This document shows positions 3,128-4,285 of a DNA stretch of 64,000 nt, one piece after another. How positions within the stretch are numbered: the stretch's first letter is position 1; every line of letters starts with the position of its first letter. The position numbers and the translations under genes are program-made. The DNA is taken from positions 43,276,001-43,340,000 of the forward strand of contig NC_135808.1 in the NCBI RefSeq assembly GCF_964213995.1. The letters run 5' to 3'. Origin of the DNA: Mustelus asterias. Lineage: Eukaryota. The notes under the pieces were generated by a model. That model was not told the origin of the DNA, searched no databases, and saw nothing but the letters and a program-made list of their open reading frames with translations.

Positions 3128-4285
3128 GATTTGATTTGATTTGATTTATTATTGTCACATGTATTAACATACAGTGAAAAGTATTGTTTCTTGCGCGCTA
3201 TACAGACAAAGCATACCGTTCATAGAGAAGGAAATGAGAGAGTGCAAAATGTAGTGTTACAGTCATAGCTAGGGTGTAGAGAAAGGTCAACTTAATGCAA
3301 GGTAAGTCCATTGAAAAGTCTGACAGCAGCAGGGAAGAAGCTGTTCTTGAGTCGGTTGGTACGTGATCTCAGACTTTTGTATCTTTTTCCCGAAGGAAGA
3401 AGGTGGAAGAGAGAATGTCCGGGGTGCGTGAGGTCCTTAATTATTCTGGTTGCTTTCCTGAAGCAGCGGGAAATGTAGACAGAGTCAATGGATGGGAGGC
3501 TGGTTTGTATGATTTTTTTTTTGTTTTTCTTCCAATTCAATGAAAATAAGTCCAATTCAGAGTCTCAACAAGTTGAGACGTTCCCGATCCAAGCTGACAA
3601 GACAGGGCTCTCACCTCCTGTCTTGGACTTGATCTACATGATCCAAGCTGATTGGAATAGGAATAGCTCCTCCTCCAAGGCTTGATCTCATTTGCATCTT
3701 AGCCAAAAGGCCGAGATGCCACTTTTAAAAATTGCTTCAAATGAAGCTAAAATGTAACCGAATGGCTTCAACCAAGTACAGCATGTCGATACTACACTTG
3801 ATCTTAACCAAAAGGTTTGCGTGAATGATTGGGCTACATTCACGACCTTTTGTGGTTTCCTTGCGGTCTGGGGCAGAGCAGGAGCCATACCAAGCTGTGA
3901 TACAACCAGGAAGAATGCTTTCTATGGTGCATCTGTAAAAGTTGGTGAGAGTCATAGCTGACATGCCAAATTTCCTTCGTCTTCTGAGGAAGTAGAGATG
4001 TTGGGGGCTTTCTTAACTATAGTGTCGGCATGGGGGGGACCAGGACAGGTTGTTGGACAACTAAAAACTTGAAGCTCTCGACCCTTTCTACATCATCCCC
4101 ATTGATGTAGACAGGGACATGTTCTCCTTTACGCTTCCTGAAGCCGATGAGAATTTCCTTCATTTTGTTAACATTGAGGGAGAGATTATTGTTGCTGCTC
4201 CAGTTCACCAGATTCTCCTATCACATTCCTGTACTCTGTCTCGTCATTGTTTGAGATTCAACCCACTACGGTGGTGTCGGAACAC
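3128..4285 (-). mobile_element. Non-CR1 LINE 3' fragment (L2/Rex1-like), interrupted by the U2-headed insert
   Basis: Peptides LTNFYRCTIESIL..CITAWYG and HPGHSLF.LLPSGKRY.S.R.RTNRLKNSFFP, with a (TCAAA)n tail at ~3128-3145. Confidence 0.8.
3513..3815 (-). mobile_element. U2 snRNA-headed short retroposon with poly(A) tail and target-site duplication
   Basis: Minus strand begins CCTTTTGGtTAAGATCAAGTGTAGTATC (U2 nt ~13-40). A second U2 5' copy (TCTCGGCCTTTTGGCTAAGAT) lies at 3696-3716. A-rich tail at 3513-3530. TSD ggtttgtatga (3502-12) / ggtttgcgtga (3814-24). Confidence 0.8.

Follow-up and report, generated by a model that had tools for sequence, protein, structure and literature searches.

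The 64,000-nucleotide stretch of the Mustelus asterias genome analysed here (the window) contains, between positions 3141 and 4275 on the minus strand, a decayed 3′ fragment of an abundant LINE that we take to be Rex1/Babar-like; a 51-aa piece of it has no match in Pfam. This fragment is split by a 303-bp element in the same orientation, which reads on the minus strand from 3815 to 3513. The element is flanked by an 11-bp target site duplication (TSD), with one copy past the tail (3502..3512) and the other at the element 5′ end (3814..3824), where the last 2 nt are shared with the U2-derived head as a microhomology. The two TSD copies are identical at 9 of 11 positions, and both mismatches fall at a single CpG. 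Among the 13 distinct sites listed with the TSD 11-mer, 11 run on as LINE and 2 diverge at the site instead of continuing as the host LINE. The uninterrupted LINE copies carry the 11-mer once, which bears out the original prediction of an A-tailed insert with an 11-bp TSD (9/11) inside a LINE. A piece of the host LINE is present in duplicate (2368-2722 and 3914-4280, 84%), and a 30-bp GA-rich minisatellite recurs at 1-1776, 2784-3129, 4294-4817, 7268-7771, 10188-10714, 13035-13561 and 47988-48575. Long tandem arrays at 16082-22985, 31305-35174 and 58334-63989 (units of 33-35, 40 and 24 bp) explain the long open frames of the window, and the frames tested have no Pfam match. Rfam searches of the whole window at gathering level, and around the element at E up to 10, returned no ribozyme and no other family.

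The element is less than 500 bp, non-coding, with a U2 snRNA-derived 5′ head and a 3′ A-tail, and encodes no ORF1, APE or RT. All of its parts lie on the minus strand. The head (3788..3815) corresponds to U2 nt 13-40, is 5′-truncated and holds the branch-point recognition sequence; in full family copies the head begins at U2 nt 1. As predicted, the sequence is non-U2 beyond nt 40, and the head matches the U2 gene of the same genome at 27 of 28 positions. An antisense arm (3770..3784) is predicted to pair with U2 nt 25-39 over 15 bp, including several G-U pairs, and an outer arm (3756..3769) has U2 nt 11-22 as its predicted partner in full-length copies. The outer arm, which is decayed in the window copy, aligns to the U4 5′ stem-loop piece of a U1-headed sister family. 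A small hairpin occupies the position of U2 stem IIb (3734..3747). Between two hairpins lies a conserved and mostly unpaired A-U5 run (3725..3733) that we take to be Sm-site-like, without the closing G of the Sm consensus. An internal copy of U2 stem-loop I (3694..3719; nt 4-27, 23/24 identical to the U2 gene of the same genome) is extended into an 11-bp hairpin. Module 1 (3640..3688) is composed of a stem opened by U2 nt 24-31, a 1x3 internal loop and a variable apical stem-loop, and module 2 (3586..3635) has the same design and contains a perfect 9-bp hairpin (3598-3606/3617-3625). A 3′ hairpin (3562..3579), one pair of which is altered on both sides in the sister family, is followed by the 3′ end and A-rich tail (3513..3545). 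The tail signal is AATAAA in the subfamily majority and off by one base in the window copy, and internal T4 and T5 runs, a feature that rules out Pol III transcription in SINEU, are conserved among copies. The second U2 copy, both perfect hairpins and the 12-nt repeat had been recognized correctly, with two corrections: the small-hairpin loop and the repeat had been quoted for the minus strand, and the "short insertion" said to interrupt the second U2 copy separates U2 nt 4-27 from an 8-nt U2 24-31 piece that opens a repeated module of the element. The 15-bp fold-back over the head was absent from that description.

We found that the minus strand of the element folds with a z score of −5.4 (0/100 shuffles as good), as compared to −2.96 for the plus strand. 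The branch-point residues of the window copy have a predicted pairing probability of 0.93-1.0, formed by the 15 nt after the head against U2 nt 25-39. In the predictions these residues are mostly paired in 8 of 9 subfamily clusters, while 5 of 6 are mostly free in native U2. In this prediction the head is folded back so that the branch-point sequence is covered, an arrangement that might protect splicing. Among subfamilies the loops are highly variable and the stems are kept. In one comparison 1 of 80 pairs covaries. When the sister family is set against the structure, pairing is kept in 97.2% of cells (95.0% in shuffles, 25-50% in slid controls) and double changes affect 4 of 42 pairs, a count reached by 207 of 500 shuffles, in a test biased in favor of the structure since that structure was derived from the window copy. 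The fold is therefore well predicted and its support from covariation only modest. The inner arm shows no significant G-U bias (best p 0.068). Three further candidate signals were rejected: a G-U bias of the whole 26-nt arm (p 0.02-0.03), its outer half being U4-derived; a 19 versus 1 count of G-U/A-C columns, circular because the structure itself came from RNA folding; and, for the sister family, a masked 5′ end of U1, which was inconsistent over 4 folded copies and is predicted for native U1 as well. The internal U2 copy had been suggested to pair with U6 or with the target; it is without the branch-point sequence and is predicted to be locked in its 11-bp hairpin (0.94-1.0), and this role is not supported.

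An exact 28-mer has 4,598 matches in the genome (reversed control 0), so that the U2-headed families have at least this many copies. With the body as query 2,011 candidates were obtained, and all 40 of those scored are full length with 95-100% identity. That the U2-headed retroposon is real as a family is, in our judgment, nearly certain. It is young, and it is non-autonomous and multi-copy with distinct TSDs, as had been proposed, and the alternative of a one-off template-switch retrocopy is refuted by the dispersal of a body of fixed structure in thousands of copies. Eighty-five U2-headed copies, with five overlapping loci omitted, fell into nine clusters, the main ones being subfamily A (n = 34, including the window copy) and subfamily B (n = 36). 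Subfamily B is the youngest, with 97-100% identity among 41 matches, and the window copy differs from the subfamily A majority at 13 of 292 sites.

For an unselected sample, we took 60 loci in order along contig C1 from the 28-mer matches, skipping one that had already been studied. The sample contains 67 copies with an exact anchor, 54 of which are headed in a search that demanded nt 15-37 and scored shorter heads as absent. Fifteen of the 54 heads begin at U2 nt 1-2 with unrelated flanks, and TSDs were found in 27 of 53 headed copies, as compared to 0-2 with swapped flanks. Flanks of the sampled copies are diverse, and 23 dispersed sites exhibit no U2-like target preference (2.04 vs 2.54 matches, p 0.98). 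A target-preference signal (p 0.002) was discarded; its set included two loci chosen for their U2 junctions, and the position-ordered sample is null. Tandem runs of different subfamilies with one TSD between copies are common. At L134, L089, L118 and L247, 3-5 copies belonging to different subfamilies lie head to tail with the same TSD between them, which suggests that a single nick was used several times. At L013 (C11) a subfamily A copy sits inside a copy of the U1-headed sister family, and at L063 (1240-1600) the 3′ part of a presumably U6-like sequence is joined directly to a full-length subfamily A copy.

The U2 genes of this genome are located in arrays on contig C24 and in a small variant cluster on C21, whose intact U2 unit scores 175.5 bits. 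The C21 cluster (28046000-28082000, L168-L172) contains a second U2 type, ∼87% identical to the main U2 over nt 41-191, in a 448-bp unit with its own promoter. Its nine promoter copies lead into four intact genes, three Keno copies, one copy of the SINE and one inversion junction. Both U2 loci hold a LINE with a zf-CCHC (zinc-knuckle) ORF1, an APE and an RT. In two arrays the 3′ end of this LINE abuts U2 nt 38, and a U2 head forms its 5′ end. The homologs of the LINE are RTs of vertebrates, one of them named TX1, and from the domains and this one homolog name we infer that the LINE belongs to the Tx1 clade. In the available part of the literature, Keno and Utopia are described with the same U2 flank, but it is Keno that has an APE (PMC4640811). 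The LINE fits Keno because of its APE domain and its 3′ end at U2 nt 38, so the Keno-type LINE expected at the same U2 site is indeed there. In the C24 array, an 8,035-bp tandem unit (L091, 190-8415) consists of one intact and one Keno-interrupted U2 gene and has been amplified ∼15 times; Keno ORF2 is broken in the unit read. The U2 head of the Keno-like LINE in this unit (nt 5-34, at L091 775-830) has a predicted fold-back, and a hairpin in its 5′ UTR resembles the module stem of the SINE.

Tails of the family, of several types, abut U2 nt 38 at nine places (control 0). The family tail and the LINE end are alike over only ∼10 terminal nt, and BLAST of the Keno 5′ and 3′ UTRs against three bodies gave a best E of 0.02, over 17 nt. 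The part of the U2 arrays that was read contains no Utopia-type element. This BLAST result and the APE of the LINE at the site give no support to the proposal of a body derived from a Keno or Utopia end. Keno-like copies occur outside U2 genes as well, and Keno-like 3′ ends adjoin dispersed family copies at L276, L290, L017, L028, L080, L101 and L120. Judging from these junctions, the Keno-type LINE is quite probably the helper that supplies the reverse transcriptase.

The U1-headed sister family yielded 2,533 candidates (88-91% among the other 39 scored) and is older than the U2-headed families. It has the body in common with them from the A-U5 run to the tail, and its 5′ part is composed of U1 nt 1-32 and U1 stem-loop II. 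It also contains a U4 5′ stem-loop (Rfam U4 positions 25-47) that scores below the cut-off, with E values of 0.035 and 2.3 in searches of 131 and 406 nt, respectively. The U4 piece can be aligned to the outer arm of the U2-headed families, which suggests an old body whose heads were exchanged, a process that has been described for SINEU-1. In 17 stretches no sister-family copy was found at U1 arrays, and the only pattern match for a U1-promoter fusion of this family proved to be an ordinary U1 gene and was rejected. At the edge of a U1 array on C8 (L323, 4650-6714), a Keno-related 3′ end lies directly before U1, at ∼nt 32-37, in a single case.

Copies of the family also lie in place behind U2 promoters. 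At L095 the first U2 promoter (300/300 nt aligned, 99.7%) leads into U2 nt 1-40, to which the family body is joined without another head. L170 has the same arrangement behind the second U2 promoter, and the remainder of the U2 gene follows. These in-place promoter fusions without head duplication (L095/L098 and L170) are copies inside U2 arrays fused at +1, of the kind the original prediction had pointed to. They are 84% and 96% like the young subfamily B and are not clearly the current masters. A promoter-plus-arm pattern gave 15 matches, 9 with U2 +1 directly behind the promoter and 6 by chance; the reversed control gave 98, so the pattern is not enriched and only the exact +1 join is informative. 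Eight dispersed units (the pattern matches with duplicates merged, plus L151) carry 12-231 nt of the second U2 promoter with an exact join to +1, and, with the in-place copies included, eight different head loops occur among them. In four of the eight units U2 up to nt 43-52 comes first, followed by the promoter piece and the element, and three of these four have a clear outer TSD. These U2 leads would resemble a left junction within a U2 gene. At L105 a single TSD encloses a 1.7-kb unit made up of U2-variant repeats and three family copies. These dispersed units may be copies, pasted at other sites, of RNAs transcribed at U2 loci that contain the element. Template switching to U2 snRNA might have produced the U2 leads, though it would not account for the promoter DNA. 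No promoter-fused copy has the subfamily A loop of the window copy, exact ones being detectable by the patterns used, and the link of subfamily A to U2 genes is one tail junction (L101). Promoter DNA was absent from all 61 arrays sampled.

The junctions make it reasonably probable that U2 genes are the source loci of the family. To a joint model, with promoter-fused nt-38 copies as sources and the Keno-type LINE as the enzyme, we assign the same fairly favorable standing. In this model the LINE enzyme would nick a U2 gene at nt 37/38 and copy the family RNA, and the U2 head of the cDNA would anneal to the first 33-40 nt of the gene. Because the cDNA head anneals to the gene, the element would come to lie in register behind the upstream snRNA promoter with its head unduplicated. 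R2 provides a described precedent for such homology-primed, uniform 5′ junctions (PMC3774820, in the text available). Pol II would then initiate at U2 +1, or read through from an upstream repeat unit, and the RNA would terminate at the A-rich tail of the element. Most RNAs would be inserted at A-rich nicks without sequence specificity, and the resulting copies, like that of the window, would be dead for want of a promoter. The fold-back arm would hide the branch-point sequence, so that the RNA would not act as a rogue U2. Copies in U2 genes likely explain how an element without a promoter of its own is transcribed.

It is also conceivable, though in our view unlikely, that SINEU-like sources lie outside U2 genes and depend on flanking promoters, with heads that are restored or added anew when the enzyme switches template to U2 snRNA, and with the U2-gene insertions as a side effect of the Keno-like enzyme. 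Such sources would accommodate the U6-fused copy at L063, the U2 leads ending at nt 43-52 as switched-to U2 fragments, and the lack of a promoter fusion in subfamily A. They are less easily reconciled with head-body junctions that are fixed per subfamily, a body that begins with an arm matched to the head, heads that end sharply at U2 +1 with unrelated flanks, and the eight dispersed units fused to promoter DNA, a sequence that U2 snRNA does not contain. For crocodilian SINEU, transcription from the flanks and repeated additions at the 5′ end have been proposed in the accessible text of Kojima 2015 (PMC4494074), and the R2 RT is described as able to jump to snRNA (PMC3414825, partial text).

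Even with U2 genes as sources, most dispersed copies, including that of the window, could have been pasted by another LINE whose enzyme takes any A-tailed RNA. The adjoining Keno-like 3′ ends at dispersed family copies make this improbable, and Keno-like copies outside U2 genes indicate that the Keno-like LINE is itself relaxed; in favor of another LINE are the 23 dispersed sites without U2-like target preference, the lack of a detectable TSD in about half of the copies, and the AATAAA tail of subfamily A, which differs from the Keno-like tail of subfamily B. We give very little credence to a non-autonomous deletion derivative of Keno or Utopia in the style of the R2 SIDEs. It would account for the shared U2 site, and Keno too has a U2 head with a predicted fold-back, but the body has no significant similarity to either Keno UTR, is composed of U2, U4-like and repeated modules, and the part of the U2 arrays that was read shows no Utopia-type element. 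As far as the present Keno family is concerned, this reading is already largely refuted.

The joint model of U2-gene sources and a Keno-type enzyme can be set beside known systems, as described in the portions of the cited papers that were available. The family is SINEU-like by architecture, its body being set beside SINEU bodies by description. Like SINEU-1/-2/-3, it is short and A-tailed with U1 or U2 heads on a shared body; both have internal oligo-T, TSD-separated tandem copies and similar copy numbers, and a Tx1-clade partner, described for SINEU, is putative here (PMC4494074). SINEU is targeted to Mariner-N4 and, in the available text of Kojima 2015, was found in crocodilians only, with its mode of transcription left open (PMC4494074); reviews, in their available text, likewise give it as crocodilian only (PMC5786205, PMC5381603). 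Unlike SINEU, the family described here enters U2 genes at the Keno site, fuses to the promoter, transduces promoter DNA, has a predicted fold-back arm over the head and has a sister family with a U4 stem-loop. Keno, a U2-specific, APE-type member of the Tx1 clade, shares the U2 insertion site (PMC4494074, PMC4640811), and the Keno-like LINE of this genome begins with a U2 head and resembles the element in its last ∼10 nt. Unlike Keno, the element has no coding capacity, and its body does not derive from Keno, which is likely its helper and not its parent. Utopia has the same 3′ flank in U2 and relaxed targeting in reptiles, with a restriction-like endonuclease in contrast to the APE of the LINE found here (PMC4640811).

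The R2/R1 SIDEs of Drosophila are non-autonomous, reside in the target gene of their helper and use the host-gene promoter, as the joint model would have it (PMC3414825). SIDEs are LINE deletion products, ribozyme-released and confined to rDNA in the text available (PMC3414825), whereas the family here is built of snRNA pieces and has spread genome-wide. Since its head coincides with the start of the gene, release by cleavage would be unnecessary. For use of a target-gene promoter and for homology-primed 5′ joins, the nearest parallels are R2 SIDEs and R2 5′ junctions (PMC3414825, PMC3774820, each in part). Our literature search, with subscription journals, Repbase and Dfam outside its scope, found no report of such a family in sharks or of U2-homing SINEs.

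Young copies exceed the Rfam U2 cut-off (58 vs 46 bits), and automatic annotation of genomes of this kind therefore probably counts too many U2 genes; the family copies at L111 (1464-1641) and L105 lie above the Rfam U2 gathering score and would be annotated as U2 genes. A wider and more tentative reading is that of an snRNA-mimic lineage cycling via snRNA genes, in which the head would serve as a homing arm that places every new source copy precisely downstream of an external Pol II snRNA promoter, the fold-back would disarm the splicing sequence in the head, and snRNP export would carry the RNA to the Keno enzyme. The export ride, which draws on the Sm-like site and the U4 K-turn of the older family, is speculative. 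If this reading were true, whole-promoter retro-units could seed source genes outside the array. The loci named here fuse the element to a U2 promoter, which makes the question of its transcription directly testable, and the family would extend SINEU-like elements beyond crocodilians.
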